Shown here: one piece after another, positions 11,860-33,730 of the stretch
Numbering within the stretch: the first letter of the stretch is position 1
Layout of the letters: every line of letters begins with the position of its first letter
Assembly: GCA_020053105.1 (NCBI GenBank)
Contig: JAGVNU010000042.1
Location: forward strand, 15,502-79,501
DNA length: 64,000 bases
Direction of reading: 5' to 3'
DNA from: Thermodesulfovibrionia bacterium
Lineage (GTDB): Bacteria > Nitrospirota > Thermodesulfovibrionia > UBA6902
Program-made: the position numbers and the translations under genes
Notes under the pieces: generated by a model
What the model saw: only the letters and a program-made list of their open reading frames with translations
Database searches by the model: none
What the model was told of the DNA's origin: nothing

Positions 11860-11875
11860 TGGCATATGAATTGCT
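11860..11875 (+). promoter_or_regulatory. Sigma54 -24/-12 promoter (TGGCAT-N5-TTGCT) upstream of first OmcS-like gene
   Basis: tggcatatgaattgct. GG at 11861-62 and GC at 11873-74 give the canonical 12-nt offset. About 115 nt upstream of the ATG at 11990, next to a sigma54 activator gene. Confidence 0.75.
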
Positions 11876-11989
11876 TATGTTAAGGTAGTATAAATGACTT
11901 TATGATTGCTTAATTCTTAAGCTAAAATAAAAAAGGAGGTGGCTAAAACAAAAATGAAGACAAACCAAAAAACAAAGGAGGTAATTAAA

Positions 11990-12985
11990 ATGAGAAAAAT
12001 AATTATGGCAGTATTGCTGGCGTTTCTTTCAGTCACGCTGGTAAGTGTGTCTGCTTATGCAGCCATTAGTGGCACATGTAGTGACTGCCACACAATGCAC
12101 AACAGCCAGGACGGGGCTGCGGTTGACAGTAGTGGTACGAATGATAATCTTACAAAATTCGATTGTATCGGTTGTCATAGCGGAAATATTGCTGCTGCAC
12201 CCAATGTGACCGGCGAAGGAGCGACTATGACAGCGGGAGGTACATTTAAGAGCAGCATAGTCGGAAGCACTTCCAGCCGGACACATAATGTTCGTGACAT
12301 ATCTTGGACTGTTGATGAAGTAGCTCTTCTTAACACGACACCGGGTTCGGTGGCTGGAGGTTTTACAGAGCCTGCCGGCGCTACTGAATTGACCTGTGCA
12401 GGAACAACTGGCTGCCACGGGCAGGCCACAGGCGGATTTTCGGGCTTTCATCACAATGCTTATCCGAATGCATACCGGTTTCTCAGAATCAATGACGGCG
12501 CTAGCTACACGGATGTAAATGGAGTGGGTTCAGCCGACTGGGAGGTAGGCGGAGCTACAACAACAAATCACAACATATATGACGGTGATGGAACCAACAG
12601 CATAAGCACATTTTGCGCAATGTGTCATGGTGGTTTCCATGGAGGCAGCAATACCGCCAGTTCAAGTCCCTTTCAGAGACACCCGACTGACGAAGAAGCT
12701 TTAATTGATAACGTTGACGGAGCAGGAATCACAATAACATCTGCTACAATTAACGAGACTCCATTCGGTTTCACGAGCGCTCAAATTGCCTTAGGGATGG
12801 TGACTACCGATGTTACTACGGGATCAGCCTACACTGCTCCTAATGGATTAGTTACCTGCCTGTCTTGCCACAGGGCACATGGTTCAGCACAGAGTGACCT
12901 TCTGAGGTTCGACTATAGTACTATGAATGCCGGCAACAGTGTAGACAACGGAGGTTGTGAGACCTGTCATACAGCTCAAAGGTAG
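11990..12985 (+). CDS. OmcS-family multihaem (5 CxxCH + CX5CH) cytochrome, paralogue 1
   Basis: ORF track 11939..12985. I prefer the ATG at 11990 (AAGGAGG 9 nt upstream). Signal peptide ...SVSAYA, then [18 protein letters not shown]. Further motifs: [49 protein letters not shown]-terminal CETCHTAQR. These blocks match, in the same order, the G. sulfurreducens OmcS sequence as I remember it (CEGCHTMHNS ... LRHP ... NCLSCHRAHASG ... CNKCHAKD). Confidence 0.8.
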   Translation: MRKIIMAVLLAFLSVTLVSVSAYAAISGTCSDCHTMHNSQDGAAVDSSGTNDNLTKFDCIGCHSGNIAAAPNVTGEGATMTAGGTFKSSIVGSTSSRTHNVRDISWTVDEVALLNTTPGSVAGGFTEPAGATELTCAGTTGCHGQATGGFSGFHHNAYPNAYRFLRINDGASYTDVNGVGSADWEVGGATTTNHNIYDGDGTNSISTFCAMCHGGFHGGSNTASSSPFQRHPTDEEALIDNVDGAGITITSATINETPFGFTSAQIALGMVTTDVTTGSAYTAPNGLVTCLSCHRAHGSAQSDLLRFDYSTMNAGNSVDNGGCETCHTAQR

Positions 12986-12996
12986 AGATGAAGGGT

Positions 12997-13030
12997 AAAA
13001 AGGAGCCGGTATCTTGCCGGCTCCTTTTTT
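12997..13030 (+). terminator. Rho-independent terminator after OmcS-like gene 1
   Basis: Stem ggagccgg (13002-09) / ccggctcc (13017-24), 7-nt loop, A-run before and tttttt (13025-30) after. Confidence 0.8.
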
Positions 13031-13100
13031 AAGGTTCATCAAAAAATGTAATATGATGGGGAATTAAGAAGGTTCTGAAAATCAATTCTTGGAAATTACT

Positions 13101-14141
13101 ATGGGCCCTCAAATAAAAATAATAATAAGTCTGATAGGCATTTTACTTGCTTTTCTACCGGTACAGGTTTCATCAAAGGTAGCAGGACCATGTGTGAATT
13201 GTCATACTATGCATAATTCACAGGATGGAGCAAATGTCAGCGGGGCAGGCCCTAATCAATATTTGATGAACGTCGGAGCAAATATATGTGTAGCCTGTCA
13301 TTCATCAGATGTTGCAAATGAGACAATCAAGGATATAGGCGGCGGCACCAGAATACCGATTGTCTATAATACTTCCGGTTATCCGACAAATCCGCTTGCA
13401 GGTGGAAATTTCTATTATGTTTCCACAGGCAGCCCAAAGGTAGATAAAGACGCTTACGGGCATAATGTATATGGCATTTCAGCTCAGGATGCAAATATCT
13501 CTACTGTCGAAGGGGCTCCGGGCAACAAGAGTTGCGGCGGTGTTGCCAATGTATGCCATCGTACCCTTGCTGTAGAGCCGCAATCAAACAACTTTGATAA
13601 GGGCGGCTGTCAGGGGTGCCATGTTAATGTGTTTCATCATACCGATAATAATGAATACCGCTTTCTGAGTGGTCATGAAGGAACAAATTATTATGTTGAG
13701 GGAGTTGAAGATGCAAACTGGGAACAGACCCCGACACTGGCTAATCACAATGTATATAAAGGATATGACGGACCTGTCGGAGATAGTGTGACTTTAGAGA
13801 CTACAAAAAGTATAAGCTCCTATTGCGGTGGATGCCATTACTATTTTCATAGAGAAACTGCAACGGGCGGACCATCAAGCCCGTGGTTAAGGCATCCAAC
13901 TGACATTAAATTGCCTGAGACCGGTGAGTATGCGGCGTACAACCCGCCCACCGAATATAATAACCAGACGCCTGTTGCTTATACGAATCCATCAAGCCCG
14001 ACAAGGGCCACAGCCATTGTCATGTGTTTGTCATGTCATAGACCGCATGGTTCTGATCAGCCTGACATGCTGAGGTGGGATTATAGTACAAGCGAATTAG
14101 GCGGTTCAGGCGGGTGTTTAAACTGTCACACGACAAAATAG
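13101..14141 (+). CDS. OmcS-family multihaem (6 CxxCH + CX6CH) cytochrome, paralogue 2
   Basis: ORF track 13089..14141; ATG at 13101 preferred. Signal peptide, then [18 protein letters not shown]. Further motifs: [77 protein letters not shown] at the C-terminus. Confidence 0.8.
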   Translation: MGPQIKIIISLIGILLAFLPVQVSSKVAGPCVNCHTMHNSQDGANVSGAGPNQYLMNVGANICVACHSSDVANETIKDIGGGTRIPIVYNTSGYPTNPLAGGNFYYVSTGSPKVDKDAYGHNVYGISAQDANISTVEGAPGNKSCGGVANVCHRTLAVEPQSNNFDKGGCQGCHVNVFHHTDNNEYRFLSGHEGTNYYVEGVEDANWEQTPTLANHNVYKGYDGPVGDSVTLETTKSISSYCGGCHYYFHRETATGGPSSPWLRHPTDIKLPETGEYAAYNPPTEYNNQTPVAYTNPSSPTRATAIVMCLSCHRPHGSDQPDMLRWDYSTSELGGSGGCLNCHTTK

Positions 14142-14251
14142 GTCGCTGATTGTTATGAGATCTTTGTATATGCCCGGATGATGCAAAAAGGTCAGATTAA
14201 TCAAGGAATAGCTAAAAGAGCGATTATTTGTTAGATATAGAGGAGCAAACA

Positions 14252-15370
14252 ATGGAAGACAAATATTTCAACGATAAAAGGATCCTGATATTTTGTAGTG
14301 CAGTAATAATGTCACTATTTCTGACAGGCATCCCTTTTTCACTTTTTGCCGCAATTACCGGGGAATGCGCCAACTGCCACACTATGCACAACAGTCAGGA
14401 TGCATCGGTCATGGCAGATTACGGGGCATCCGGCAAGCCATGGAAAGGCAGTGGTCCAAATGATGCGCTGACTCGTGGTGATTGTCTCGGATGTCACGGC
14501 ATTGGTACTTCCAAAGTTGTAACCTTAGGCACAAGTGAGATACCTCAGGTTTATCATACTGATGCAACCGGTGATCTGGCAGGCGGCAACTTTGCTTATA
14601 TACTTGGTACAAAGGGTAGTGGCGCATCTGATGCTAAGGGACATAATATAGTAGAAATTGGTGATGCTGAAAGTACATTATCAGAGCCTCCGGGGCACCA
14701 TTCACCCAGCAGCATAAGAGTTAATATCACCTGTTCAGGAATAACCGGCTGTCATGGTAAACGAGCTTCAGGGGAAATCTTGAAAGGGGTCCATCATAAA
14801 AATGTTGATGGTGCGCTTGATACCTCTGACCAGGTTTATAACAGTTACAGATTTCTTTACGGGGTCAAGGGCTTTGAAAATACGACAGGTTCTTATAAAT
14901 GGCAGAACTTTGATAAAGATAATCATAATGAGTATTTTGGTGCAACTACCCCCATGAGTTACACCGGTTGTAATATCTGCCATACTCCGCAGGGGATCCA
15001 GCCTACTAATCATACAATAAGCGGTTTCTGTGGAACATGTCATCGAGAATTTCACACGGTTGAGGGTATTGGCGGCGACACCAGTACTCCGTTCCAGAGA
15101 CATCCAACGGATGTGATCTTGCCTGGCAGCGGTGAGTACGCAAGTTACAATGGGGTCGGCAATCAATATAGTGTACAGGCCCCGGTAGCCAGAACAGCGA
15201 ATCCTATTATTTCCATTAGCGATACGGTCATTCCTGGAACAGATGTAGTCATGTGTCTCTCCTGCCATATGGCACACGCGTCCAATTATCCTGACATGCT
15301 GAGGTGGGATTACAGTGCGATAGAATTAGGTGGTTCAGGAGGTTGCCTTATATGCCACACATCAAAATAA
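14252..15370 (+). CDS. OmcS-family multihaem (6 CxxCH + CX5CH) cytochrome, paralogue 3
   Basis: ORF track 14228..15370; ATG at 14252 follows GAGGAG. Signal ...SLFA, then [17 protein letters not shown]. Further motifs: [91 protein letters not shown]. Confidence 0.8.
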
Positions 15371-15394
15371 AATACTGTTAATATGGTTCTTAAA

Positions 15395-15425
15395 GAAGCC
15401 CGGTTGATTATGTCAGCCGGGCTTC
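15395..15425 (+). terminator. Terminator-like hairpin after OmcS-like gene 3 (weak U-tract)
   Basis: gaagcccgg (15395-15403) / ccgggcttc (15417-15425), 13-nt loop, followed by ttcagtat. Confidence 0.5.
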
Positions 15426-15700
15426 TTCAGTATATGGCCAGCGATATTTTCTGTAGTTTGTTAACGCAATGATCTCTCCATGATTGTGATATTTCCTGAA
15501 ATATATTAATAAAACTATAAGTACATTGAATTACATAACAACTTATTGCTATTATTTAAAACTTGATCTGATAGTTCGTTGTAAAATCACAATATTTTTT
15601 GCGACGCTTAACATAAGAATAAAGCAGGGGAAATCAGTCGCCACCTTAATGATTTGGTGCTTATTTGCAAAGCGCAGCTGAATCGCATTTTGTACCCATA

Positions 15701-16672
15701 ATGGAAAAAAAAACCAATCAAGCGAGAATCCTGTTACAGAGGACAACTTATTTTCTTTCTTCTGTTCTAGTTGTGCTGTCGTTGGTCCCTTCAGCTCTGG
15801 AGTCCCAGCAGCTTGGTTCTGCCATTATTACCTATCAGGAGAGCATCACTACTGATGAAGAGGACAGAAATCTGGTATTGCCCTCGTTTATTTATGCAGA
15901 TTTATTAACAGGTGAAGTTTATGTTATAGATGGTAAGGGCAGAATTATTATATTTTCACCCGAGCTGTTTCCGTTAATTACACTCGGCAAAAGGGACGGA
16001 GTTGAAGCGCCTCAGGGGTTGACTGTGGATGCTGAAGGTAATCTTTATATTGCCCAGGCCGCATCAAAAAGCAATCCGAAAAACAGGATTTCGGTTTACA
16101 ATGCATGCCTGAAGTGGGAAAGGGATATATATTTGGAGGATTTTGAGGGGAGCGGTTCATTTGCCCCTTATCGCCTTGCAATAGACAAGAAGGGGAATCT
16201 GTATGTGGCGGCAAGCCATTTCCCCGGTGTCGTGTATGTAGATACAACGGGTCGTTTTATTGATATTATTGCACCTGAGGAGGATGGGAAAAAAATAAAA
16301 TTAAATAGTGTCGTTATTGACAAGGCAGGGAAAATATATGTTGTAAGTGAGGATCAGAGTCATATTTATGTTTATGATGAAAATAGAAAATTTATTAATA
16401 AATTCGGTGAAAAAGGCGGAAGCACGGGTAAACTCAGCCGTCCCAAGGCCATTGGGGTGGATGACCGAACAGGCAGAAGCTTTGTCGTGGATTATATGCG
16501 CCACACGGTAACTTCATATGATAAGGAAGGTAAGTACCTTTTTGAATTTGGTGGGCTCGGGTGGAGCGAAGGATGGTTCCAGCACCCGGTCAATTTAGCG
16601 ATTGACAATAAAGGCAGGATCTTTGTGGCAGATTTATTTAATCAGCGGGTACAGGTGTTTAATTCCTGGTAA
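15701..16672 (+). CDS. Secreted NHL-repeat beta-propeller protein
   Basis: ORF track 15665..16672; ATG at 15701 preferred. Hydrophobic signal (YFLSSVLVVLSLVPSALE). NHL-type blades, e.g. PQGLTVDAEGNLYIAQ, PYRLAIDKKGNLYVA, PKAIGVDDRTGRSFVVDYMRHTVTSYD, PVNLAIDNKGRIFVADLFNQRVQVF. Confidence 0.85.
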   Translation: MEKKTNQARILLQRTTYFLSSVLVVLSLVPSALESQQLGSAIITYQESITTDEEDRNLVLPSFIYADLLTGEVYVIDGKGRIIIFSPELFPLITLGKRDGVEAPQGLTVDAEGNLYIAQAASKSNPKNRISVYNACLKWERDIYLEDFEGSGSFAPYRLAIDKKGNLYVAASHFPGVVYVDTTGRFIDIIAPEEDGKKIKLNSVVIDKAGKIYVVSEDQSHIYVYDENRKFINKFGEKGGSTGKLSRPKAIGVDDRTGRSFVVDYMRHTVTSYDKEGKYLFEFGGLGWSEGWFQHPVNLAIDNKGRIFVADLFNQRVQVFNSW

Positions 16673-16853
16673 CTTATAATTAGAGTTTTTTTTATAAAGA
16701 CGCCAAGCTGGATTCGTATATAATTTCCGCGAAGGCGGCAATCAGGAATTCTGGGTCTAATATGATACTCCGGCTTTCTGCCGTAACGCGTACCGGGTCA
16801 ATACGGTGACTAAAATTAGGCAAAAACTTTATTTAATATAGGGCAGTAGAAAC

Positions 16854-18431
16854 ATGAAAAATACTAAATATATCTTAAGACTCCGGCTTTTCATGATATT
16901 TTTTGCAACTGTCATTTTTCCCCCGGGTTGTATGACTCCGGAAGAGCAGGCAAGTCACCCTGAGATGTTTAAGTGTCAGGTGTCCCTTTTTTTTAACGGC
17001 CCTGACATGGCTGCCAGTGATATCACCTTTGAGCTGGCGGGAGTCAATATAGTAGCAGAAGATGGGACTTCCAGAGAAGTTGTGCGCGCTCCTCTCCGTA
17101 TTAATTCCAATGATATAAAAGGCCGTCAAATATTTCTGGGTGAAAAATCTTTACCTGAAGGCAAGTACGAAAAGCTTCAGTTTGTCATAAAGGAAGCGTC
17201 TATCAGTAAAAAAGGGAAGACCTCACATCTAGCGTTGCCGCCCGGGGGAGTGGAGTTAGGCATTGATGTTTCCTTAAGAAGAAATCAGAGTACCACATTA
17301 TTTCTGAACTGGAATGCTGATGCATCTGTCAGTGAGGACTACCTATTCAACCCTGTATTTACGGTAAAGAGTCAGGGCGCTGAATTAAGTTCTCTGCTTA
17401 TTTACGTAACTAATGAGGATTCGGACTCCGTCTCGGTGATTAACAGGCAGGCCGGTGAGATAGCCGCGACAGTATTGGTGGGGAAAAAGCCGAGGGGGAT
17501 TGCGACTTCAATTACGGGAGAGCGCCTTAAGGTTTATGTTGTGAATTCAGGCTCAAACAGTATCTCAGTAATCGACCCTACAACGAATAAAATAGAGAAT
17601 GAGATCCCTATCAGGTTCGGCAGGCAGCCGGAAGCTATCGCTGTAGCAGGCATATCCGCTGATAAGGAGCTGATATTTGTCGCCAATTACGGCTCCAATT
17701 CAGTTTCCCTGGTGGACGCATCCACTTATCAGGAGCTGGAGAAGATAGATGTAGGGCGAGGCCCAATAGCAATTGCAACAGACCCACCGGTGGAGGATCT
17801 TATGGGATCGAGGTTTCTCAGCTTTGATGATATTAACTTATTAAGAAGTTACAGGGAAAGGTTTTTTAATGTTTATGTAGTCAATCAAAATTCCAACAGC
17901 GTTTCCGTGTTGAGGATTGACGCTGTGGCTAAGAAGAGCGTGGAAGTTATTAATCTAAGCGTGGAATGGAGACCCGTCGCGCTAAGCGTGGATTATCAAA
18001 GGGGCAAGGTTTATATAGCCAATTATGATTCTGACAAACTGTCTGTTATAGATATCCCCAAAACAGTAAAGGGCATTACGTCAGATGCTGTCAGCACCAT
18101 TAATAATGTGGGATTTTCTATAATAGGTGTCATCGCTGACCCGGCCTTCGACAGGCTGTATTTATTAAAAGAACGTACCGGGGAGGTAGTGATTGTCAGA
18201 CCTTTTACAGACAACCTTGATACCCTCAGGACAGTGATGCCTCCGGTAATGGGGACTATTGCCGTGGGGAGTTCGCCAAGAGCACTCGTTTTAGATCCTG
18301 AAGCCAGAAAGCTGTATGTAGTTAACAGCGGATCAGACAATATTTCAGTTATAGATAAAACCACAATAAATGAAGAGCAGATCATCCCTGTAGGCAAGAA
18401 GCCTTACGGTATAACATTTTTCCAGAAATGA
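16854..18431 (+). CDS. Lipoprotein with N-terminal DUF4382-like domain and YVTN-type beta-propeller
   Basis: 525-aa ORF with a lipobox-like FPPGC. The N-terminal roughly 170 aa resemble the DUF4382 pattern (LPEGKYEKLQFVI...LALPPGGVELGIDV...LFLNWNADASV). Then repeated YVTN-like blades (IYVTNEDSDSVSVINRQAGEI, VYVVNSGSNSISVIDPTTNKI, IFVANYGSNSVSLVDASTYQ, VYVVNQNSNSVSVL, VYIANYDSDKLSVID, LYVVNSGSDNISVIDKTT). Confidence 0.8.
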   Translation: MKNTKYILRLRLFMIFFATVIFPPGCMTPEEQASHPEMFKCQVSLFFNGPDMAASDITFELAGVNIVAEDGTSREVVRAPLRINSNDIKGRQIFLGEKSLPEGKYEKLQFVIKEASISKKGKTSHLALPPGGVELGIDVSLRRNQSTTLFLNWNADASVSEDYLFNPVFTVKSQGAELSSLLIYVTNEDSDSVSVINRQAGEIAATVLVGKKPRGIATSITGERLKVYVVNSGSNSISVIDPTTNKIENEIPIRFGRQPEAIAVAGISADKELIFVANYGSNSVSLVDASTYQELEKIDVGRGPIAIATDPPVEDLMGSRFLSFDDINLLRSYRERFFNVYVVNQNSNSVSVLRIDAVAKKSVEVINLSVEWRPVALSVDYQRGKVYIANYDSDKLSVIDIPKTVKGITSDAVSTINNVGFSIIGVIADPAFDRLYLLKERTGEVVIVRPFTDNLDTLRTVMPPVMGTIAVGSSPRALVLDPEARKLYVVNSGSDNISVIDKTTINEEQIIPVGKKPYGITFFQK

Positions 18432-18449
18432 TAAATTGCAGAAGATATA

Positions 18450-25816: not shown

Positions 25817-25826
25817 TAATCTTCTG

Positions 25827-27803
25827 TTGAGGGCTATGAGGATGAAATCCGGATTTAAACATATCATTTTTAAAATTTCTTTGTTGGCAGTTGTATTTCT
25901 TTTTGTCCAGTGCGCGCCAGAAATAAAACCTTCCAGAAAAGGTTTTGTGCCTAAACCATGCATGGACTGCCATACCGAGACCCAGAGCGAGTTTTCAAAA
26001 CAGTACGTGCATGATCCTATGAGTAAGCGTGATTGTGAGGCATGTCATCTTCGCCACGGAAGACTGGCAGTTAAATCATTTGTCGAAAGGGAAGAAAGAA
26101 AGCTCTGTTTTATTTGTCACACGAAGATGGCCTCAGATGTTGAAGGGATGACAAGCGTACATACAGTCCTGAAACAGGGCAAGTGCCTGCCGTGCCACAA
26201 CGCCCATGCGTCTGATAATAAAGCCCTTCAGAAAAAGGTGGGGAACGAGCAGTGTTTTATGTGTCATGATAAGGCCCCTTTTGAAAGGACGAAGCGGCAT
26301 AAGCCGCTTGATGACGGGTGCATTGCATGTCATGCGGCTCATGGGTCTCAATATAATGGCAACCTGATCAAAGCGGAAGTGGATCTGTGCCGGTCCTGTC
26401 ATAAATATGAGGAGGACGGTTTCAGAAATGCCCATAAAAAATATCCCGTTGAAAAGGGTAACTGCTCCGGATGCCACACATCTCACAGTTCCTCAAACGA
26501 CAGGCTTTTGAGAGAATCGGTCCATGAACCTCTCATTTCGGGACAGTGTAATTCATGCCACAAACCGGATACGGACCCGGAACCTTTTGCGGTCATTGCC
26601 CCGGACGGTAAACTTTGTTATACATGCCATGAAAAAGAAGAAAAAAAATATAAGACTGCATACGTGCATCCCCTGACGAATGAGGGCAAATGCCTGAGCT
26701 GTCACAGTCCTCATGCATCAGACTATCCCAGGGTCACAATTAGAGATAAAAATGATCTTTGCACGGACTGCCATATGGAAAAGCCGAATATTAAGGTCAG
26801 CAACCTCCATGCACCTATAAAAAAAGACGGCTGCACTGCCTGCCATAATCCGCATGCATCGGAAAATAAGTTTTACCTGAAAGCAGCGGAAAAAAAGATA
26901 TGTTTTTCGTGCCATCCCAAAGTAGAAGAAGAGTTGATAAAGGCGGCATATTCACACAAGCCTTTTCTGGACATCGAATGCTCAAAATGCCATGATTCCC
27001 ATGGTTCAAACAATGCTGCAATGGTCAGGATGCCGCTGACCGACCTGTGTTATGAGTGTCATAAAGACGCGGCAGAAAAATATTTCAAGACCTATGTCCA
27101 TAAACCGGTGAGTGACAGGCAATGCTCAGCCTGCCATGCGTCACATGCCTCAGAATATGATAAATTATTAAAGAATTCAGAGGCGGATCTGTGTATGAAG
27201 TGCCATGAGAGCATGTATCTTGAAATGGAAGAGGAAGGCACCCATCCGCTGTTTAAAGACAAAAAGTGCGGCACCTGCCACGATCCGCATGCAAGCGACA
27301 ATGTTGCATCCACCATTATGCCGGCCAATAAACTTTGCTTTACGTGTCACGAAGCTGTAATGGCAGGGATAACTAAAAGCGCTGTTAAGCATCTTCCTGT
27401 AGAAGAGGGCAAATGTTCTGAGTGTCACAGTCCTCACGGGACGAAGCTTAAATATCAGTTATTAAACCGCCCCAATGAACTATGTCTCTCGTGCCATGAG
27501 AGGATAATTACTACAACAGCGAGAAAGGGCCATATATACATGGAAAACGGTGACTGCCTAAGCTGCCATAGTTCGCATTATTCAGACATGAAGCATCTAC
27601 TCAAGGGCGCTGACCCTGCAATATGTGTTCAATGTCACTCTACAGATACGGAAAGACTGCTGAAAGTGCACCGGGAATCGATAAACAAAATAGGCCGCTG
27701 CACAAGTTGTCATGAACCTCATGTAACGGAACGCCAGGGCTTACTGAGAGAGATAATGCACGAACCGTTTACCAGGGGAGATTGTGAGGCCTGCCATGTA
27801 TAG
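25827..27803 (+). CDS. 26-haem c-type cytochrome (probable lipoprotein)
   Basis: 658-aa ORF. I counted 26 CxxCH motifs, regularly spaced about 20-25 aa apart, many as CxxCHxxH[AG]S pairs. Possible lipobox LFVQC. The last haem motif (CEACHV) is the C-terminus. Start is uncertain (TTG 25827, ATG 25836 or 25842). Confidence 0.9.
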   Translation: MRAMRMKSGFKHIIFKISLLAVVFLFVQCAPEIKPSRKGFVPKPCMDCHTETQSEFSKQYVHDPMSKRDCEACHLRHGRLAVKSFVEREERKLCFICHTKMASDVEGMTSVHTVLKQGKCLPCHNAHASDNKALQKKVGNEQCFMCHDKAPFERTKRHKPLDDGCIACHAAHGSQYNGNLIKAEVDLCRSCHKYEEDGFRNAHKKYPVEKGNCSGCHTSHSSSNDRLLRESVHEPLISGQCNSCHKPDTDPEPFAVIAPDGKLCYTCHEKEEKKYKTAYVHPLTNEGKCLSCHSPHASDYPRVTIRDKNDLCTDCHMEKPNIKVSNLHAPIKKDGCTACHNPHASENKFYLKAAEKKICFSCHPKVEEELIKAAYSHKPFLDIECSKCHDSHGSNNAAMVRMPLTDLCYECHKDAAEKYFKTYVHKPVSDRQCSACHASHASEYDKLLKNSEADLCMKCHESMYLEMEEEGTHPLFKDKKCGTCHDPHASDNVASTIMPANKLCFTCHEAVMAGITKSAVKHLPVEEGKCSECHSPHGTKLKYQLLNRPNELCLSCHERIITTTARKGHIYMENGDCLSCHSSHYSDMKHLLKGADPAICVQCHSTDTERLLKVHRESINKIGRCTSCHEPHVTERQGLLREIMHEPFTRGDCEACHV

Positions 27804-29127
27804 GGAAAAAATTAAAAATATAATATTAAAAATGAAAAATAACGGGAATGAAAAAGTTTTCAATTCAATGACCTGCAGTTTGCAATTTGCGGTTTACTTT
27901 TTTATAGTCGGTTTTCTGCTCTTGTGGGGCAGTGCCGTCCATGCGCAGGTTAAACTGAAAACAAAAGTGCCTGACCTTTGTTTTGAATGCCATAAAGAGC
28001 TGAAAAAGGCCCAGTCAGATCCGTTTGTACATTTTTTGTTTAAAGAAGGAAAATGCGTTACCTGTCACGACGCTCATGTTGGCAAGAGAAAGGGCCTGCT
28101 GGTTGATCAGGTTGATACTATCTGCCTCGGATGTCATGACAGCATAAGGAATCTGGTTGAAAATACGATAGTCCACGGCGCTCTCAGGGAACATAACTGC
28201 ACAGAATGCCACTCCGCGCACAGTGCGAAAAATAAGTATCTGCTGGCCAAAGAGGAAAAGGGCCTCTGTCTGACTTGTCATGAAAATTTAAACCAACAAT
28301 TGCAGAAGCCATATATATGCCGTCCTTTTAAGGACGGGGAGTGTTCAGCCTGTCACAATTCTCATGCATCTTCGGTTAATAGTCTTCTGGTCTCCCCGCC
28401 TGATAAGCTGTGCAAAAAATGTCACGAACCAAAATGCAGGGCCGGCTCGGTATCTATCGCTTCTGCAGTGGAAGAGATGGATTGTACTACATGTCATTCC
28501 GGTCATAGTTCCCTTGATAAAGGCCTTCTCGGTCCCTTCGGTCATAAGGTCTTTCTCGACAAGAATTGTGAGGAGTGCCATAATCCGATCAAATCACCGC
28601 GAGACATAACCACTAAGTTAAAAGGGGCGGATTTATGTTTCAAATGCCATAAAAGAAACATGTCAAAATATGAATATGTCGACAATGACATACATGTTAA
28701 AGATGCCAGGAACCCGTGCAGTGTCTGTCATGATGAGCATGCTTCAACCCAGAAGAATCTCACAAAGAAGGAATCCGATGTTTGCGCAAAGTGCCATGAA
28801 AGTACGGAAAGAAGGACAGCGGCAATGGAAAGGGCACTGAAATCAGCAGGATGTGAGCCGATAAAGAACAGAAAGTGTTTCGAGTGTCATATACCTTCTC
28901 ACTCATCCCGTCCGCTTGATTACCGGGCAGATGAAATTCCGCTTTGCGCCCGATGTCATTCAGCACAGCATAAGATTACTCATCCGGTTGGAAGTGATAT
29001 TAAAGATCCCCGCAACGGCCGGCCTTTGACCTGTAATTCATGCCATAGTATGCATTCTGCCAATGCCGACTTTATGCTTACTCATGACAGAAAGAGGGCA
29101 CTCTGTATCCAGTGTCACAAGATGTGA
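27796..29127 (+). CDS. 16-haem c-type cytochrome
   Basis: ORF track 27784..29127. The ATG at 27796 follows GAGG and overlaps the upstream stop codon. TM/signal FAVYFFIVGFLLLWGSAVHA. I counted 16 CxxCH motifs. Confidence 0.9.
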   Translation: MYREKIKNIILKMKNNGNEKVFNSMTCSLQFAVYFFIVGFLLLWGSAVHAQVKLKTKVPDLCFECHKELKKAQSDPFVHFLFKEGKCVTCHDAHVGKRKGLLVDQVDTICLGCHDSIRNLVENTIVHGALREHNCTECHSAHSAKNKYLLAKEEKGLCLTCHENLNQQLQKPYICRPFKDGECSACHNSHASSVNSLLVSPPDKLCKKCHEPKCRAGSVSIASAVEEMDCTTCHSGHSSLDKGLLGPFGHKVFLDKNCEECHNPIKSPRDITTKLKGADLCFKCHKRNMSKYEYVDNDIHVKDARNPCSVCHDEHASTQKNLTKKESDVCAKCHESTERRTAAMERALKSAGCEPIKNRKCFECHIPSHSSRPLDYRADEIPLCARCHSAQHKITHPVGSDIKDPRNGRPLTCNSCHSMHSANADFMLTHDRKRALCIQCHKM

Positions 29128-29189
29128 GATATGGGGGAGGAATGCCGCTTGTCCATCCAAAATATCTGGCTAATTCCAGGTCAACCGTA

Positions 29190-29205
29190 AGGCATTATTA
29201 TTGCA
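29190..29205 (+). promoter_or_regulatory. Sigma54 -24/-12 promoter (AGGCAT-N5-TTGCA) upstream of OmcS-like gene 4
   Basis: aggcattattattgca. GG 29191-92 and GC 29203-04 have the 12-nt offset. About 48 nt upstream of the TTG start at 29253. Confidence 0.6.
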
Positions 29206-29252
29206 TAAATTGCGGCCTGATATATAAACTATAGAAGGAGCGTTGTGTAAAT

Positions 29253-30344
29253 TTGATCAGATTAAAACGTTACATATTCCTTCCGGTAGTCATCCTGGTA
29301 ATTGCTCTATTTTCGGCTGAACTGCCGGCTGTGATTACGGGACAATGCAGCGATTGCCATACTATGCATAACAGTCAGAACGGGGCTGCCATGGTTTCGT
29401 ATGTATTCGGTTCTGAAACAACAGACGCAAAGGAGTATCTCCTCGTTGGAACGTGTTTAGGCTGCCACGCCCAGGGGGGGGCAAGCATGGTTGCAAATGT
29501 AAACGGCATTGATACACCCCAGGTTTATCACACTGATGCAACAGGCGATTTAGCGGGTGGTAACTTTGCCTATATTCTTGGCACAAAGGGATCAGGCGCA
29601 TCTGATGCGAAGGGGCATAATGTTGTCGATTTTGGCAATACTGAAGATACCCTTTTGTCTCCACCGGGGCATCATGAGCCTGACGGGATAGGGATAAATA
29701 TTACCTGCGCAGGGATAGCCGGCTGTCACGGAGTTCGAACATCCAGTGGCGGCATCTATGGTAATCATCACCGCAATGAAGACGGAAAGCTCACAACTGC
29801 TGATCAGGCATATAACAGTTACAGGTTTTTGACTGGAGTAAAAGGACTTGAGGACTCTGACTGGGAGAAAACAAAAAGTGTGTCAGACCACAATGAGTAT
29901 TTCGGGGCGACCTCACCGATGACTTTCAGTTCAAACTGCAATATCTGCCATAATCCACAGGGGATACGACCTTCAAATAATACAATTAGCGGATTCTGCG
30001 GGACCTGTCACAGATATTTTCATGTGTCAGATCAAGTTAATGGGATTTCTTCCCCCTCTCCTTTTACAAGGCATCCTACCGATGTGATTTTGCCGGGAAG
30101 TGGTGAGTATGCAAGTTATAACGGGGGAAGTAATCCGTATAGTTTAGTGGCCCCTGTGGCCCGGACTACAATTCCTGATGTTCCTGGGGATACCGTTGCA
30201 CCTGGCACGGATGTTGTTATGTGCCTGTCATGTCATACTGCTCATGCAAGTGACAACTCTGACATGATGAGATGGGACTATAAGAGTACAACCCTGGCAA
30301 CGGCCATTTCGGGATGTAATGTATGTCATACAGCAAAAAATTAA
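29253..30344 (+). CDS. OmcS-family multihaem (6 CxxCH + CX5CH) cytochrome, paralogue 4
   Basis: 363-aa ORF with a TTG start 12 nt after GAAGGAG. Signal ...AELPA, then [18 protein letters not shown]. Further motifs: [91 protein letters not shown]. Closest paralogue of 14252..15370. Confidence 0.8.
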   Translation: MIRLKRYIFLPVVILVIALFSAELPAVITGQCSDCHTMHNSQNGAAMVSYVFGSETTDAKEYLLVGTCLGCHAQGGASMVANVNGIDTPQVYHTDATGDLAGGNFAYILGTKGSGASDAKGHNVVDFGNTEDTLLSPPGHHEPDGIGINITCAGIAGCHGVRTSSGGIYGNHHRNEDGKLTTADQAYNSYRFLTGVKGLEDSDWEKTKSVSDHNEYFGATSPMTFSSNCNICHNPQGIRPSNNTISGFCGTCHRYFHVSDQVNGISSPSPFTRHPTDVILPGSGEYASYNGGSNPYSLVAPVARTTIPDVPGDTVAPGTDVVMCLSCHTAHASDNSDMMRWDYKSTTLATAISGCNVCHTAKN

Positions 30345-30397
30345 TGAGAGGGAGAGAATCTACAGGGATGAGAAGACGGCATAACGAAGAGTACATA

Positions 30398-31735
30398 ATG
30401 GATACTGTGAAATCGTCAACTTTTTATAAGTTGAAGACATTATTATTGACGATATTGAGTTCACTTGCCTTATCCGGAATGTATTATATTGAACCGGCCA
30501 ATGCCGGAACATACCTGAATTCCGCTCATGGCAATTCTACATACGGAGTTAAAAGAAGCGCATCGGGTTTTCCAACTGACTATACAAAAGGTCTCTGCGG
30601 TCACTGCCATGAGCAGCACTCCAGTGTGGATGGATCTGAACCGGAGCCGATTGACGGGTCCCCGTCTACTTATGAGTTATTTTATAGCAACTATGTGAAT
30701 CAGACAGATAATATTTGCTTTCAATGCCATAAAGATATCAGTTCGTATCAGACCGGCGGCAGTCTGGTAAACCGGAGCTACAGCTTCAGGGCTGGTGGAT
30801 GGACTGCTGATTCGCTCAATGATCTCCTTGAAGCTTTTTCAGTTGCTTCTCCTGGTTCATCACATTATCTTGATAATGTAACTACGTTAATTACTGCGAA
30901 AAGCTGGAATTATACATCTGACTCTAATCCCTGCGATGCATGCCATAATCCTCACGCAGCCCAGGGTGATCCAGTCGGCGCCCCAAACAGCGCCAAAAGT
31001 TCCGGCACAAGGGGCTGGCCTGTTTCCCGTCCAAGCCTGCACAGTGAAGACAATAGTGTATGGGGCCTCTGGGGAGATAGCTCAGGGGAAAAGATGAGCG
31101 ATTACGCCGGAGTACTCACATATCAGGCCCCTTACCGGTATAATTCCACAACCACGTATGAACCTGATGGCTCTACAACACAGAATGGGTCCAACCTGAC
31201 GGATTATGTTACCTTCTGTACAGACTGCCATAATACTACAAATACAATCTATAGCACTACGCTTGGAAGGAACCTGCGCGCTGTTGACTGGACCGCAGCC
31301 AAGCACGGCAAAGGGGCTGCTGTACTGGATAGCGCTTCCGACATTTTCCCGCCTTATCAGGACGCCCAGTTAGGTAATTATGTTATGTCCTGTACGGATT
31401 GTCACGAGCCGCATGGGTCTACAAATGTATTCTTTATCAGGGGAGAGGTGAATGGCAGCGTTCCGGTCACTGTTCTTACAGAGGCAGGAACAAACGACGG
31501 TCCGGGCAGCAGGTGCAACAGTGAGTGGACCTACCTTTGCGGTAAATGCCATAAAAGGCTTGTCAGTTCGGATGGACATGCGCATCCTTCATTTATTCCG
31601 CCGGATACTGAAGGCTGTTCAGACGCATCCTGTCATAGCGGTGATGACGGGTGTATTTACACGTCATGCGGCACATGTCACTATCATGAATCCGACACTG
31701 TTTTCGGAACACCCTACGGCGAAAAATTATTTTGA
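30398..31735 (+). CDS. Secreted multihaem c-type cytochrome (7 CxxCH + CX4CH), family distinct from OmcS-like genes
   Basis: ORF track 30323..31735. Start is uncertain (ATG 30368 or 30398). Signal LLLTILSSLALSGMYYIEPANA. Motifs: CGHCH, CFQCH, CDACH, CTDCH x2, CGKCH, CSDASCH, CGTCH. Ser/Thr/Asn/Gly-rich. Confidence 0.8.
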   Translation: MDTVKSSTFYKLKTLLLTILSSLALSGMYYIEPANAGTYLNSAHGNSTYGVKRSASGFPTDYTKGLCGHCHEQHSSVDGSEPEPIDGSPSTYELFYSNYVNQTDNICFQCHKDISSYQTGGSLVNRSYSFRAGGWTADSLNDLLEAFSVASPGSSHYLDNVTTLITAKSWNYTSDSNPCDACHNPHAAQGDPVGAPNSAKSSGTRGWPVSRPSLHSEDNSVWGLWGDSSGEKMSDYAGVLTYQAPYRYNSTTTYEPDGSTTQNGSNLTDYVTFCTDCHNTTNTIYSTTLGRNLRAVDWTAAKHGKGAAVLDSASDIFPPYQDAQLGNYVMSCTDCHEPHGSTNVFFIRGEVNGSVPVTVLTEAGTNDGPGSRCNSEWTYLCGKCHKRLVSSDGHAHPSFIPPDTEGCSDASCHSGDDGCIYTSCGTCHYHESDTVFGTPYGEKLF

Positions 31736-31759
31736 ATTAATTTATGGAGGACACTAATA

Positions 31760-32014
31760 ATGGCCAAGTGTTTATTCACAATCGTCGGGACCTGCTTATG
31801 CGTGATATTCAGTTTGCAAACCAATTTGGTATATGCTGCCTCAAAAGGCAATCCTGTTGTTATGCAGGACCATATCGAAAAAGTAAAGCGTAAGAACCCT
31901 GCTGGATACCAGGAGATGGTTGACAAGGCAGGAGGGAACATAACAAGCTGCGTAAGCTGCCATACAGACATAGGCAAAAAGAAAAACGGCCCCAGCCAGA
32001 TAAATCCCAGATAG
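31760..32014 (+). CDS. Small secreted monohaem cytochrome c
   Basis: 84-aa ORF. GGAGGA SD, signal peptide (CLFTIVGTCLCVIFSLQTNLVYA), single CVSCH motif. Confidence 0.6.
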   Translation: MAKCLFTIVGTCLCVIFSLQTNLVYAASKGNPVVMQDHIEKVKRKNPAGYQEMVDKAGGNITSCVSCHTDIGKKKNGPSQINPR

Positions 32015-32109
32015 ACATATCAGATAAATACCAGAACTGTATAATGTTACTGATTGTCGTTTGCTACAGTTATTATGGTATGGTCTTTTCCCAACGCAAG
32101 ATATAACTA

Positions 32110-33006
32110 TTAAAACTTGTCCTTATGGCAGGCTACGCAAATCTGCAGGTTGACCCCGGACAACCGTAGTCTGTATTTCTCGCTTGCGCCCTTTGAACTT
32201 GCCCTGTCCCTCGGAATAACGCCTCTTTCATGCGGATTATGACACGTGGGGCAGGTAATTTTGCCTTCATAATTAAGCGGAAGAATGATCCCGAATTTCG
32301 TTTCCGTTTCCTTCATGTTTTCTACAATGGTAGGATTTGGAGTGACCAGGTGGTTGGCATTAATAGGATGAAACTGACTTTGCTTGTAATGACATCTGAA
32401 ACATAACACTTCAAGGTTGCCGATTAGTTTGACTTCTTTGAAAGTAGCATGCTGCTCATCGGGCTTTTCCGCGTGGCAGTATAAACATTTATCGACAATA
32501 ATAGCTCCAGCTTCCGTGATCTGGTTGTGCGGGTCGAGCATTGTGTATTTCTTTTCATCATGGCATCTGAAACAAAGGGTTGTACGGCTCACATACGGCG
32601 CTCCCCTCAAGAACCTTTTATTAATGGTTTTATATCGGGGACTTTTTTGACATTGCAAGTACATATCATGACATGTGGCGCAAGTAACCTTCCCGTCTTT
32701 TAATGGGAAGTCTCCAGGAATTTTCCTCTTTTTTTCCTCAGTAGGAACTATATCTACGGGATGTATGTATGTGCCGGGAGTATAGCCGTGGCACTTGCAT
32801 AGCTGTGTATAATCACCGCCGAATTTCAGGAATTGCTCGCCGCCTTCGTCAGGGGTCTTTTCGTGACACTCGCTGCAGTATTTACCTGAATAATGTACGT
32901 CAGTCTTGTCCGTAACCTCTTCCGTACCATTTACAGCTGCTTGTGCGGATGTCAACAGCGCCAGGAGAATGACGGGGAATATTATTTTAATTACCAATTT
33001 ATTCAT
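32110..33006 (-). CDS. Periplasmic 7-haem c-type cytochrome
   Basis: 298-aa ORF with a signal peptide (IIFPVILLALLTSAQA). Motifs: CSECH, CATCH, CFRCH x2, CLYCH, CPTCH, CVACH. Confidence 0.85.
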   Translation of the reverse strand: MNKLVIKIIFPVILLALLTSAQAAVNGTEEVTDKTDVHYSGKYCSECHEKTPDEGGEQFLKFGGDYTQLCKCHGYTPGTYIHPVDIVPTEEKKRKIPGDFPLKDGKVTCATCHDMYLQCQKSPRYKTINKRFLRGAPYVSRTTLCFRCHDEKKYTMLDPHNQITEAGAIIVDKCLYCHAEKPDEQHATFKEVKLIGNLEVLCFRCHYKQSQFHPINANHLVTPNPTIVENMKETETKFGIILPLNYEGKITCPTCHNPHERGVIPRDRASSKGASEKYRLRLSGVNLQICVACHKDKF

Positions 33007-33058
33007 CTTATCGATAATTATTTTCTGTTTAATGAAAAAAATTAAGATGGGTTATATG

Positions 33059-33730
33059 TCAGGATATTAAATCCTTGTTTATCTGAATATCCATGTGACG
33101 CTTAACGGTCTCAATATACGCCTGTATTGTCTGATTGCTTTTTGAAGAGCGGAAGATGGACCTCAACTGGTCCTTGTTTTCTACATTCATAGACTCAAGA
33201 ATTTGTAATTCTTCTGAAGAAAGCTCTGCAGTCTCTCCGATTAAATTGCTCATTTTGGAAATAAGCAAGTCGTTTCTCATCGTGTTTTCAAAGGACTGGG
33301 TGGTTAAGCGGTTTAATTTCAGCGCCCTTTTATATACCTCAGGGTCAAATATGCCGTTTCTCTGAAAATAAGGGGTGCTTACTATAGCTTCCTGAAGCTC
33401 TTTTTCGGTCACCGTTATCCCGGCTTTTGAAGCGGCGGCAACCAGTACCATCCTGTTTACCAGTGTAGCAAGGACCCGGTCTTTAAGGTTTAACTTTTCA
33501 ATTTCCTCAGGGCTCTTCTTCTGTTCTTTAAGACGGTTGACTTCATTATCATATGCCCTCCAGTATTCATCGATGGTTATCTTTTCATCCTCAACACTGG
33601 CGACAAATGCTGACTGAATATTATCTTTTGGCCCAATACCCCAGAATATGAATGCAACAGAGATCATTATGGTGATAGCGCCGAGAACGAACACCGTGAA
33701 GAACTTATGGCTCTGCATTATTTTTAGCAT
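33059..33730 (-). CDS. Membrane-anchored SurA-N/PpiD-N-like periplasmic chaperone (no PPIase domain)
   Basis: 223-aa ORF with an N-terminal TM helix (FFTVFVLGAITIMISVAFIFWGI), then a PpiD-like helical region (ITIDEYWRAYDNEV...RVLATLVNRMVLVAAASKAGITVTEKELQEAI). Confidence 0.6.
   Translation of the reverse strand: MLKIMQSHKFFTVFVLGAITIMISVAFIFWGIGPKDNIQSAFVASVEDEKITIDEYWRAYDNEVNRLKEQKKSPEEIEKLNLKDRVLATLVNRMVLVAAASKAGITVTEKELQEAIVSTPYFQRNGIFDPEVYKRALKLNRLTTQSFENTMRNDLLISKMSNLIGETAELSSEELQILESMNVENKDQLRSIFRSSKSNQTIQAYIETVKRHMDIQINKDLIS

Follow-up and report, generated by a model that had tools for sequence, protein, structure and literature searches.

Gene content and regulation of the locus

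The window analysed here is a 64,000-nucleotide stretch of a contig from a Thermodesulfovibrionia bacterium (Nitrospirota). It contains four genes for cytochromes of the OmcS superfamily (S1 to S4) surrounded by genes for propellers, a barrel, lipoproteins and further cytochromes. Two regulatory genes open the set: a sensor histidine kinase (8577..10097, + strand) with a CXXCH at residue 146, in a periplasmic sensor, followed by HAMP, HisKA and HATPase domains (Pfam), and a sigma54-dependent response regulator (10139..11554, +) assembling a receiver, an AAA+ sigma54 activator and a Fis-type HTH (Pfam). Homologous kinases adjacent to osc (omcS-companion) genes in other loci likewise carry a single CXXCH in their sensor, and the regulator is 44-51% identical to those found at the same position in loci L014, L016, L018, L047 and L052. 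Conservation, here and below, is given as the number of genome loci, out of 78 examined, in which the neighbourhood of OmcS genes contains a homologue. The haem-sensing sigma54 circuit is conserved among osc loci, the kinase having a homologue in 27 of the 78 and the regulator in 30, and does not distinguish the present one.

A sigma54-type promoter-like element, TGGCATatgaaTTGCT (11860..11875, +), lies about 80 nt upstream of S1, and a second, AGGCATtattaTTGCA (29190..29205, +), upstream of S4. The latter, proposed by the first-pass annotation as a promoter proper to the fourth OmcS-like gene, is kept at equal offset in two related contigs, as AGGCATaattaTTGCT in L081 and TGGCATcattaTTGCT in L082. 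Over the whole window the sigma54 pattern occurs six times for 3.9 expected, i.e. not above chance, and the element preceding S1 is promoter-like by its position and context, not by its frequency. S3 is followed by a 16-bp stem-loop (15393..15427, +; folding energy -29.8 kcal/mol, z = -5.6), possibly a terminator, an attenuator or an mRNA-stabilising hairpin. Because this strong hairpin precedes a 300-nt gap, the genes, first described as one plus-strand array, are probably not transcribed as a single unit, the gene set itself being as described.

The OmcS-like cytochromes

S1 (11939..12985, +; start probably 11954) possesses six haem motifs (5 CXXCH and a CX5CH), S2 (13089..14141, +) seven (6 CXXCH and a CX6CH), S3 (14228..15370, +; start probably 14252) seven (6 CXXCH and a CX5CH), and S4 (29253..30344, +) seven, six of them CXXCH. 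The first three lie in tandem and the fourth apart, as first described, with CXXCH counts of 5, 6, 6 and 6; one further conserved CX5CH/CX6CH motif per paralogue had been overlooked. All the cysteines of the mature proteins are located in haem motifs, and the seventh motif of S2 is placed differently from that of S3 and S4.

These ~350-residue proteins align with OmcS over the ordered haem motifs: a profile built from all four paralogues hits OmcS (PDB 6EF8) with E=2.3e-14, from profile positions 45 to 349 of 358 and OmcS residues 8 to 359 of 407, with haem motifs 1-5 in register. S4 alone matches 6ef8 with E=2.8e-6 (phmmer). The identity of S1-S4 to OmcS is 24-31%, and they share with it (6EF8/6NEF) a full-length similarity and the CHTMHNS, GHN, CHxxxH, RHP and CLSCHxAH signatures, CHTMHNS being invariant across the four. 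S1-S4 thus belong to the OmcS superfamily, with haem sites collinear to the OmcS ones and with the CHTMH histidine kept. That their resemblance to OmcS would be a generic likeness of multihaem motifs, in a coincidental neighbourhood, appears extremely improbable. S2 alone does not find OmcS in a PDB search, and Pfam returns only generic multihaem families for S1-S4, but the profile aligns in register over the full length, and the synteny of eleven neighbour genes, collinear with canonical OmcS companions across phyla, effectively refutes this explanation.

Several features set these proteins apart from OmcS. Its haem-3 site is a CXXCH, whereas that of S1-S4 is a CX5CH (CX6CH in S2); S2-S4 harbor a seventh haem motif, in contrast to the hexahaem OmcS; and all four are shorter by ~70-100 residues (about 310-340 amino acids in the mature form instead of 407). 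They fall outside the canonical OmcS clade, in a large divergent subunit clade whose members are also found as isolated genes, distant from any osc-like cluster. The conserved CHTMH histidine of S1-S4 occupies the position of His16, which we take to be the cross-subunit ligand of OmcS. In the OmcS filament a histidine ligates the haem of the neighbouring subunit (PMC9473688). Among the Geobacter paralogues, polymerisation is known only for OmcS itself, and not for OmcT, OscC or OmcJ, according to the available descriptions; family membership is therefore no proof of filament formation, which is a prediction for S1-S4.

The differences between the paralogues also raise the question of whether the S proteins of an osc homologue might form a structurally different or mixed polymer. 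For example, S4 could be the major subunit and S1-S3 a tip, anchor, terminator or condition-specific component. The seventh haem would provide a branch or an exit exposed to solvent. Consistent with such a scheme, the motif number is six in S1 but seven in S2-S4, and the additional site of S2 lies elsewhere than in S3 and S4; a conserved sigma54 promoter of its own precedes S4, which is the sole subunit gene retained in the more distant relative L082; and the hairpin divides S1-S3 from the remaining genes. Tandem paralogues are, however, frequent in canonical loci (L055 harbors five), where they may be alternative homopolymers or non-polymerising relatives, and we regard a mixed or different polymer as quite unlikely.

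The companion proteins

Downstream of the hairpin, a secreted NHL-repeat β-propeller (15665..16672, +; start probably 15701; Pfam) has homologues flanking osc clusters in 44 of the 78 loci. The following gene, at the OscD position (16854..18431, +), encodes a lipoprotein with a lipobox, an N-terminal domain weakly similar to DUF4382 and a YVTN/YNCE β-propeller (Pfam) matching PDB 1l0q with E=3e-32; full-length homologues are found directly 3' of OmcS genes in 51 loci. Both propellers were correctly recognised from the start, the DUF4382 match being the weak part.

The OscE-position gene (18541..20829, +) encodes a 762-residue outer-membrane β-barrel terminated by a phenylalanine (NCRF), as first described. 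Its AlphaFold model (mean pLDDT 88) exhibits about 29-30 strands and an inserted β domain at approximately residues 260-420. The barrel profile matches full-length ORFs of 735-775 amino acids in 47 of the 78 loci. Since the profile matches barrels of the Geobacter and Geomonas type over the insert domain as well, this insert does not distinguish the locus. The best fold match of the model is MtrB, with TM-scores of 0.39/0.44. MtrB is a cytochrome-sheathing porin and not a secretion channel, which counts against a secretion reading of the OscE-like barrel.

The next three genes had been annotated as paralogous lipoproteins. The first two (20873..21487 and 21573..22160, both +) are OscF-like lipoproteins with a single GNA1162/LpoB-like domain (Pfam), the second being a duplicate of the first (37% identity, E=1e-41); they have homologues in 48 and 54 loci, respectively, the latter at 32-37% identity. 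The third (22285..24126, +) encodes an OscG-like protein of 613 residues, with an N-terminal membrane helix, an E/K/P-rich disordered linker of ~270 residues and two PelC/GNA1162/CsgG-fold domains. Its C-terminal half consists of two tandem copies of the OscF-like domain and matches the OscG-position gene in 44 of the 78 loci. The paralogy hence holds at the level of domains; inspection of the N-terminus of the 613-residue protein revealed no lipobox, and its assignment as a lipoprotein is not retained. The OscH-like lipoprotein (24155..25816, +) combines a lipobox, a SurA_N and two parvulin PPIase (rotamase) domains (Pfam), as expected for the SurA-type PPIase initially described, and has nearly full-length matches in 46 of the 78 loci.

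The initial counts for the two giant cytochromes were accurate. The OscI-like protein (25827..27803, +) contains 26 CXXCH and has homologues in 40 loci; its identity to ORFs of the loci is 37-38% over its own full length, exactly 26 CXXCH being counted in 31 of these ORFs; GSU2495/oscI is itself described as a 26-haem protein. The OscJ-like protein (27784..29127, +) contains 16, and its homologues, with 15-17 motifs, come after the 26-haem gene in osc loci.

The genes beyond S4 also agree with their first description in motifs, domains and orientation. A cytochrome with eight motifs (30323..31735, +; start probably 30398), seven CXXCH and one CX4CH, possesses a region similar to MtrC/MtrF domains II/IV; it is kept 3' of S4 in L081 and L082, and no homologue was found in the 78 canonical osc loci. 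It is followed by a monohaem cytochrome of 84 residues (31760..32014, +), present in L081 and absent in L082. Two genes converge on the array: a 7-haem cytochrome (32110..33006, - strand; 7 CXXCH), kept in both related contigs, and a SurA_N-only chaperone-like protein (33059..33730, -; Pfam). As the latter adjoins hemC in L081 and L082, it could be one of the flanking housekeeping genes, and its link to the osc-like system is uncertain.

The barrel and the cytochromes could alternatively be read as a porin-cytochrome conduit instead of a filament machine. The barrel would sheathe either the 16-haem or the 26-haem cytochrome in the manner of MtrB around MtrA, with S1-S4 and the 8-haem protein docked on it as monomeric surface reductases and the PelC-like lipoproteins and PPIase serving only to assemble the conduit complex. 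MtrB of the Mtr complex as top TM-score, the proximity of the giant periplasmic cytochrome genes to the barrel gene, the MtrC/MtrF-like region and the fact that a single member is known to polymerise among four Geobacter OmcS paralogues all point this way. Yet the TM-score to MtrB is low, TonB-dependent receptors and ushers being similar by E-value, the subunit-bridging histidine motif is invariant in S1-S4, and the homologous Geobacter block is described as acting in the folding, secretion and morphology of OmcS nanowires. We consider a conduit in place of a filament machine unlikely; conduit and anchor roles of the barrel are mutually compatible.

Comparison with known systems

The osc cluster of Geobacter sulfurreducens spans GSU2504-GSU2493 and, as described, comprises the OscD propeller, OscE barrel, OscF/G lipoproteins, OscH PPIase, OscI and OscJ (Shen et al. 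2025, Cell Chem Biol 32:239). Homology was computed against loci of Geobacter sp. H2geo, Geomonas, Citrifermentans and Anaeromyxobacter, G. sulfurreducens being matched by its published description. The loci examined include those of Geobacter sp. H2geo and of Citrifermentans bremense, for which the GSU2500-GSU2493 block, tied to OmcS nanowire maturation and secretion, is reported. Collinear homologues of all the genes that run from the kinase through to the 16-haem cytochrome stand beside canonical OmcS genes. This block, with its order kept, is present in Geobacter, Geomonas, Citrifermentans, Anaeromyxobacter, Acidobacteriota and further Nitrospirota; besides Geobacter relatives, at least five other lineages carry it. 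Contigs of related Nitrospirota conserve the array as a whole. The co-occurrence of the neighbours with OmcS homologues is thus borne out in many phyla, and the gene order agrees with the published cluster, to which the PPIase, channel-like proteins and β-propeller had been tentatively linked.

The locus and the osc cluster, as the latter is described, share OmcS-like gene(s), OscD to OscH, the 26-haem OscI, the ~16-haem OscJ and the NHL propeller, the companions being 22-38% identical. They differ in the position of the NHL gene, after the subunit genes here and before them in osc, in the duplicated OscF, in the membrane helix and ~270-residue disordered linker of OscG, and in the appended genes: a fourth subunit gene preceded by a promoter of its own, and the 8-haem and convergent 7-haem cytochromes. 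Of the "expanded, differently wired" homologous system put forward in the first-pass annotation, the homology therefore stands; the barrel insert, the haem-sensing sigma54 circuit and the multiple subunit paralogues, common in other loci, are not distinguishing. What differs in this lineage is the subunit clade with its CX5CH/CX6CH haem-3 site, the OscF duplicate, the OscG anchor and linker, and the two extra cytochromes.

In structure comparison, the OscG-like domains match PelC, PelBC, GNA1162 and CsgG, and the predicted OscF/G-like domains resemble PelC more than CsgG. In the PelBC exopolysaccharide exporter, a dodecameric ring of the lipoprotein PelC accompanies the PelB barrel (PDB 5T0Z, 5T10, 5T11, 9H80). 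PelC and the OscG-like domains superpose with target TM-scores of 0.6-0.74 (E ~1e-7), although their sequence similarity is not significant. Both systems encode PelC-fold proteins beside a separate outer-membrane barrel, without an ATPase. Pel exports a polysaccharide, whereas the cargo here would be a folded haem protein, and the barrel of the locus, which bears an insert domain, far exceeds the PelB porin in size. The analogy with curli, raised initially, holds for the CsgG/LpoB/GNA1162 fold class: the CsgG periplasmic domain belongs to it (4uv2 and 6l7c matches), and some relatives of the lipoprotein domains have Pfam CsgG (PF03783) matches. The analogy is only partial, as TM-scores to CsgG (0.34-0.44) are below those to PelC, CsgG is itself the channel instead of a separate barrel, and no CsgE or CsgF counterparts were detected at the locus. 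By analogy with the outer-membrane step of curli, export across this membrane may be energy-independent.

OmcE minimal clusters, described as two multihaem cytochromes, two β-propeller lipoproteins, a subunit gene and a large β-barrel (bioRxiv 10.1101/2025.10.22.684050), share their logic with the locus. The tetrahaem OmcE itself has no sequence relationship to the proteins here, and PPIase and PelC-fold genes, both present here, are not mentioned in the available description of these clusters.

Proposed mechanism and identity of the locus

In the proposed mechanism, the haem-c sensor kinase would phosphorylate the sigma54 activator, firing the sigma54 promoters before S1-S3 and S4. The subunits would be carried over the inner membrane by Sec, receive six or seven haems, and be held assembly-competent by the OscH-like SurA_N/parvulin lipoprotein. 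The ~30-strand OscE-like barrel would be their exit or their mount, and the two OscF-like lipoproteins together with the membrane-tethered OscG-like protein could form a periplasmic collar or funnel below it, as PelC under PelB. Outside the cell, the subunits would polymerise head-to-tail, the CHTMH histidine ligating the haem of the next subunit. The propeller proteins may modulate filament morphology, and the 26- and 16-haem cytochromes would transfer electrons through the periplasm to the filament base.

The locus is real and not fundamentally new, as it is a diverged copy of the published Geobacter osc cluster. It is probably a Nitrospirota version of this cluster that would make, export and electrically feed an extracellular OmcS-type multihaem polymer.

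An osc-type gene block in the window

The array of the window belongs to a known kind of system, namely the osc/OmcS nanowire machinery that was published in 2025 as being widespread and ancient (PMC11845295, doi 10.1016/j.chembiol.2024.12.013). The osc (omcS-companion) cluster was defined in Geobacter sulfurreducens as GSU2504-GSU2493 (Shen et al. 2025). An ORF map combined with CXXCH counting reproduced almost exactly the gene list and haem-motif counts of the first-pass annotation. On the plus strand, a sensor kinase whose sensor region has one CXXCH (8577-10097) and a sigma54-dependent response regulator (10139-11554) precede three tandem cytochromes of ~350 amino acids, S1 (11939-12985), S2 (13089-14141) and S3 (14228-15370). 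These are followed by an NHL propeller (15665-16672), a lipoprotein combining a weak DUF4382 match with a YVTN/YNCE propeller (16854-18431; PDB 1l0q, E=3e-32), a 762-aa protein without Pfam hits, hereafter the barrel (18541-20829), two small GNA1162/LpoB-like lipoproteins (20873-21487 and 21573-22160) sharing 37% identity (E=1e-41), a 613-aa protein without Pfam hits (22285-24126), and a lipoprotein PPIase with a SurA_N domain and a double parvulin (24155-25816). The plus-strand array ends with cytochromes harboring 26 (25827-27803) and 16 CXXCH motifs (27784-29127), a fourth such cytochrome, S4, of ~360 residues (29253-30344), an 8-haem cytochrome with 7 CXXCH and one CX4CH (30323-31735), and a monohaem protein (31760-32014). 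Convergent to the array, on the minus strand, are a 7-haem cytochrome (32110-33006) and a SurA_N protein (33059-33730); past the latter lie hemC, hemA and a CcsA-like gene (33778-36870, minus strand). PDB sequence searches gave no useful match for the 8-haem and 7-haem proteins, and an Rfam scan of the window gave no match. As had been claimed, the array encodes no ATPase or inner-membrane translocon, bar the regulatory AAA+ domain.

The proposed co-occurrence of these companion genes with OmcS homologues was borne out by a scan of one genome per species, for which the query was OmcS aligned with S1-S4. It returned at least 78 OmcS-homologue loci from Geobacteraceae, Geomonas, Citrifermentans, Anaeromyxobacter, Desulfobulbaceae, Acidobacteriota, Nitrospirota, Rokubacteria and Schekmanbacteria. 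By tblastn, a collinear order recurs: haem-c kinase and sigma54 regulator (where present), NHL propeller, OmcS gene(s), propeller lipoprotein, large barrel, small lipoprotein, two-domain protein, PPIase, 26-haem cytochrome, ~16-haem cytochrome and NHL propeller. Every companion was matched in the same order by tblastn and profile, in up to 54 of the 78 listed loci. This maximum is that of the small lipoprotein, followed by the propeller lipoprotein (51/78), the PPIase (46/78), the 613-aa protein through its C-terminal half (44/78) and the 26- and 16-haem cytochromes (40/78 each, with exactly 26 CXXCH in 31 ORFs of the former). The barrel was found in 31 of the 78 by tblastn and in 47 by profile, full-length at 735-775 amino acids. 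The sigma54 regulator is present in 30 and the kinase in 27 listed loci, and the kinases adjoining these clusters likewise carry one CXXCH in the sensor.

In the comparison, osc was represented by Geobacter sp. H2geo, Citrifermentans bremense and Geomonas, all of them reported carriers of the block; G. sulfurreducens PCA is not among the loci listed. Counting along the block, hence by position, the propeller lipoprotein corresponds to OscD, the barrel to OscE, the small lipoproteins to OscF, the 613-aa protein to OscG, the PPIase to OscH, and the 26- and 16-haem cytochromes to OscI and OscJ. A 2026 paper equates oscC with GSU2501, oscI with GSU2495 and oscJ with GSU2494, and attributes folding to OscH, secretion to OscE/F/G and morphology to OscD. 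Genetic evidence for a role of the companions in filament folding or secretion is cited for Geobacter only.

The jelly-roll insert of the barrel, a sigma54 circuit that senses haem and the presence of several subunit paralogues had been put forward as distinctive; all three turn out to be common to canonical osc loci. To note, the canonical loci L055 (5659-16239), L003 and L033 harbor up to five tandem OmcS-like genes, indicating that subunit amplification is a general osc trait. The array differs from canonical osc in other respects: its subunits belong to a divergent clade with CX5CH/CX6CH motifs and a seventh haem motif in three of the four paralogues, OscF is duplicated, OscG is membrane-tethered and has a long disordered linker, the NHL gene is displaced, and a module of S4, the 8-haem and the 7-haem cytochromes is added.

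The subunits and their haem sites

On sequence grounds, S1-S4 are OmcS-like, distantly, with 24-31% identity to OmcS. The kinship advanced in the first-pass annotation found support in an alignment over ordered haem motifs: an S1-S4 profile matches the OmcS structure (PDB 6ef8) with E=2.3e-14, profile positions 45-349 of 358 covering OmcS residues 8-359 of 407. S4 alone also matches 6ef8 (E=2.8e-6, residues 30-357 against 7-362), while a PDB search with S2 alone gave no OmcS match, its link needing the profile. An NCBIfam search returned generic multihaem domains only.

The haem layout is of the OmcS type. Six haem-attachment sites of S1-S4 occur in OmcS order, motifs 1-5 being in register in the profile alignment and the sixth, C-terminal, lying beyond the stretch of OmcS that aligns. 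Where OmcS has its haem-3 CXXCH, S1-S4 display C-[AS]-G-x-x-G-C-H, that is CX5CH (CX6CH in S2), a site at which covalent haem would be attached, to judge from the motif. S2, S3 and S4 each possess an extra CXXCH, whose location in S2 differs from that in S3 and S4. All cysteines of the mature proteins, 12 in S1 and 14 in S2-S4, fall within haem motifs, and the histidines suffice for bis-His ligation; S1 is therefore predicted to be a hexahaem and S2-S4 heptahaem cytochromes. The candidate bridging histidine is conserved: the CHTMHNS signature is invariant across S1-S4 and OmcS, and its second histidine, three residues past the first haem motif, corresponds to OmcS His16. In the OmcS filament, haem ligation crosses subunits, a histidine from one chain binding a haem of its neighbor (PMC9473688). 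Of the OmcS paralogues in Geobacter, OmcS alone has a known ability to polymerise.

Relatives of S1-S4 are numerous. A word-indexed search yielded more than 2,084, the best 120 of which all have E<1e-100 and all carry the CX5CH site. An exhaustive search of 50%-identity representatives gave 990 clusters at E<=1e-10, 516 of which reach E<=1e-30. Among the 150 best cluster representatives, CHTMH is kept by nearly all; CX5CH is present in 107, most often beside five CXXCH, and 33 have six or seven CXXCH without CX5CH. In the 78 listed loci, picked for their resemblance to G. sulfurreducens OmcS, the OmcS-family ORFs carry six CXXCH and all lack CX5CH; against these ORFs S1-S4 reach bit scores of 40-85, compared to 250-450 for OmcS itself. 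This score gap, together with the CX5CH contrast, sets S1-S4 apart within the OmcS superfamily, in a clade of their own that is large and uncharacterised.

On two other contigs, L079 and L080, genes of the CX5CH clade occur singly or paired amid unrelated housekeeping genes, a few kb from rpoN in the case of L080. Such isolated genes rule out that the clade is always tied to osc-like clusters. The ccsA-like gene by hemA (36043-36870) was considered as a sign of a haem lyase dedicated to the CX5CH site; this idea was discarded as unsupported, since the pair resembles the hemA-hemX arrangement, which is common.

The proposed outer-membrane step

The 762-aa protein is a large outer-membrane barrel, modeled with a pLDDT of 88. 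From the N-terminus, the model comprises ~11-12 strands, an inserted beta domain (approximately residues 260-420) and 18 further strands, ~29-30 in total, and the C-terminal Phe is conserved. The profile match to Geobacter-/Geomonas-type barrels spans profile positions 8-457, insert included, so the insert is a family feature and not a peculiarity of the window. The link to Geobacter-type barrels derives from tblastn and profile searches of the loci; a word-indexed search with the barrel, whose exact sequence is not on record, reached Nitrospirota only, named relatives including a Thermodesulfovibrio-labelled bin. Another ORF of 762 codons (59894-62182) was considered as a second barrel and ruled out, being a ribonucleotide reductase. 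In the surroundings of ComEC, MutL, UbiD-like and class II-type ribonucleotide reductase genes, an AbiEi-type antitoxin/transcriptional regulator gene (49735-50451) was also observed; it has no relation to the osc-like system.

Foldseek retrieved generic large barrels only. The best TM-score is that of MtrB, ahead of TonB-dependent receptors and ushers, and bears on the main rival to an export channel, namely that the barrel is a porin-cytochrome conduit or an anchor. The MtrB score is low, at 0.39/0.44, and MtrB is a porin of ~26 strands that sheathes a periplasmic decahaem cytochrome, as compared to the ~29-30 strands and insert found here. An MtrA-like decahaem gene was not found in the array, although 16- and 26-haem genes neighbor the barrel. 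Conduit or anchor and export roles could coexist, and published discussion leaves 'secretion or anchor' undecided (bioRxiv 10.1101/2025.10.22.684050).

The OscG-like 613-aa protein starts with a membrane helix (residues 2-25), followed by a disordered E/K/P/A/T-rich linker of ~270 residues (30-299) and by two C-terminal alpha/beta domains of high pLDDT. This C-terminal half represents two tandem copies of the small-lipoprotein domain, while the N-terminal extension and linker are restricted to close Nitrospirota relatives. In length, the linker would suffice to span the periplasm. The best Foldseek match of the two domains is PelC, the ring lipoprotein of the PelBC exporter (5t0z, 5t10, 5t11 and 9h80, including the PelBC transporter; E ~1e-7, target TM-scores 0.6-0.74), followed in order by GNA1162, CsgG in its pre-pore form, LpoB, the TolB N-domain and FlgT. 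Relatives of the 613-aa protein have Pfam hits to FlgO, GNA1162, LpoB or CsgG.

Export had been likened to curli CsgG/E/F, an analogy that stands for the periplasmic fold class alone. CsgG shares only this class with the OscG-like domains, with low TM-scores (0.34-0.44). Whereas the beta-hairpins of CsgG form the channel, the OscG-like models are devoid of membrane hairpins; no CsgE or CsgF homologue was detected by Pfam among the window proteins; and curli CsgG is the channel itself, while the window encodes a separate barrel. Fold similarity and gene adjacency suggest that the outer-membrane step could involve a PelBC-like collar associated with the barrel.

A more complete model, possible though rather doubtful, can be drawn for the short, CHTMH-bearing OmcS-like clade. 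It would form a structurally distinct nanowire, with non-canonical covalent haem and a seventh haem in S2-S4, exported through a PelBC-like collar and barrel with OscG tethered to the inner membrane by its long disordered linker, and S1-S4 would be the major, tip or terminator subunits of one filament.

Transcription signals

Sigma54-like elements are found at 11860 and 29190, the count of consensus matches in the window not exceeding chance. The sequence and offset of the 29190 element are kept in two related Nitrospirota contigs, L081 and L082, amid variable surrounding DNA. Some 15 nt upstream of its -24 box, before S4, the stretch TGGCTAATTCC / TGACTAATTCC (window 29165-29178) is likewise kept in three contigs, at an unchanged offset in L081 and L082, while its flanks vary; a regulator or IHF may bind there. 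A third, relaxed sigma54-like match, AGGCATtttacTTGCT (13136-13151), falls within the opening 60 nt of the S2 frame; it is probably due to chance, or could be an internal promoter if the S2 start is further downstream. Generic sigma70 promoter and terminator scans performed no better than on shuffles. A stem-loop with a 16-bp perfect stem (15393-15427, plus strand; -29.8 kcal/mol, z = -5.6) lies 20 nt past the S3 stop; it has no clear T-run and is followed by a 300-nt AT-rich gap up to the NHL gene. It could set the ratio of subunits to machinery, either as an attenuator or by stabilising the mRNA. The array probably consists of several transcription units.

Conservation in the lineage

The array is kept in L081 (66-76% identity for the two proteins compared) and in L082 (41-52%). 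Common to both are S4, the 8-haem cytochrome, the convergent 7-haem cytochrome, the SurA_N protein and hemC, whose adjacency is retained in L082. The latter contig has no S1-S3 genes and begins with two NHL genes. S4 and the 8-haem protein therefore make up the conserved core of this variant, and S1-S3 represent a more recent expansion.

Divergent from the kinase gene, a minus-strand operon (659-8256) encodes a cytochrome b-like membrane protein (DUF4405/Ni_hydr_CYTB, 6251-7129), two multihaem cytochromes with 6 CXXCH and two CXnCH (7174-8256 and 659-1717), cytochromes with 3 (5404-6234) and 18 CXXCH (1968-4262), and another NHL propeller (4388-5305). The set resembles an electron input module leading from quinol at the inner membrane into the periplasm, and could supply the osc-like system.

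Implications for nanowire biology

The folding, export and anchoring of cytochrome nanowires are described in the literature as largely unresolved. The osc machinery of Nitrospirota is deeply diverged with all components recognisable, and provides a second, distant reference point for its essential features, candidates being the insert-bearing barrel, the proteins of PelC fold, the PPIase, the 26-/16-haem pair, and the haem-c kinase with the sigma54 regulator. The likeness to PelC offers a structural model of the outer-membrane step that can be put to the test and would hold for Geobacter too, and the conservation of CX5CH in the subunit clade raises a concrete question on haem attachment. With caution, the presence of this clade in metagenomes may serve as a marker of extracellular electron transfer.
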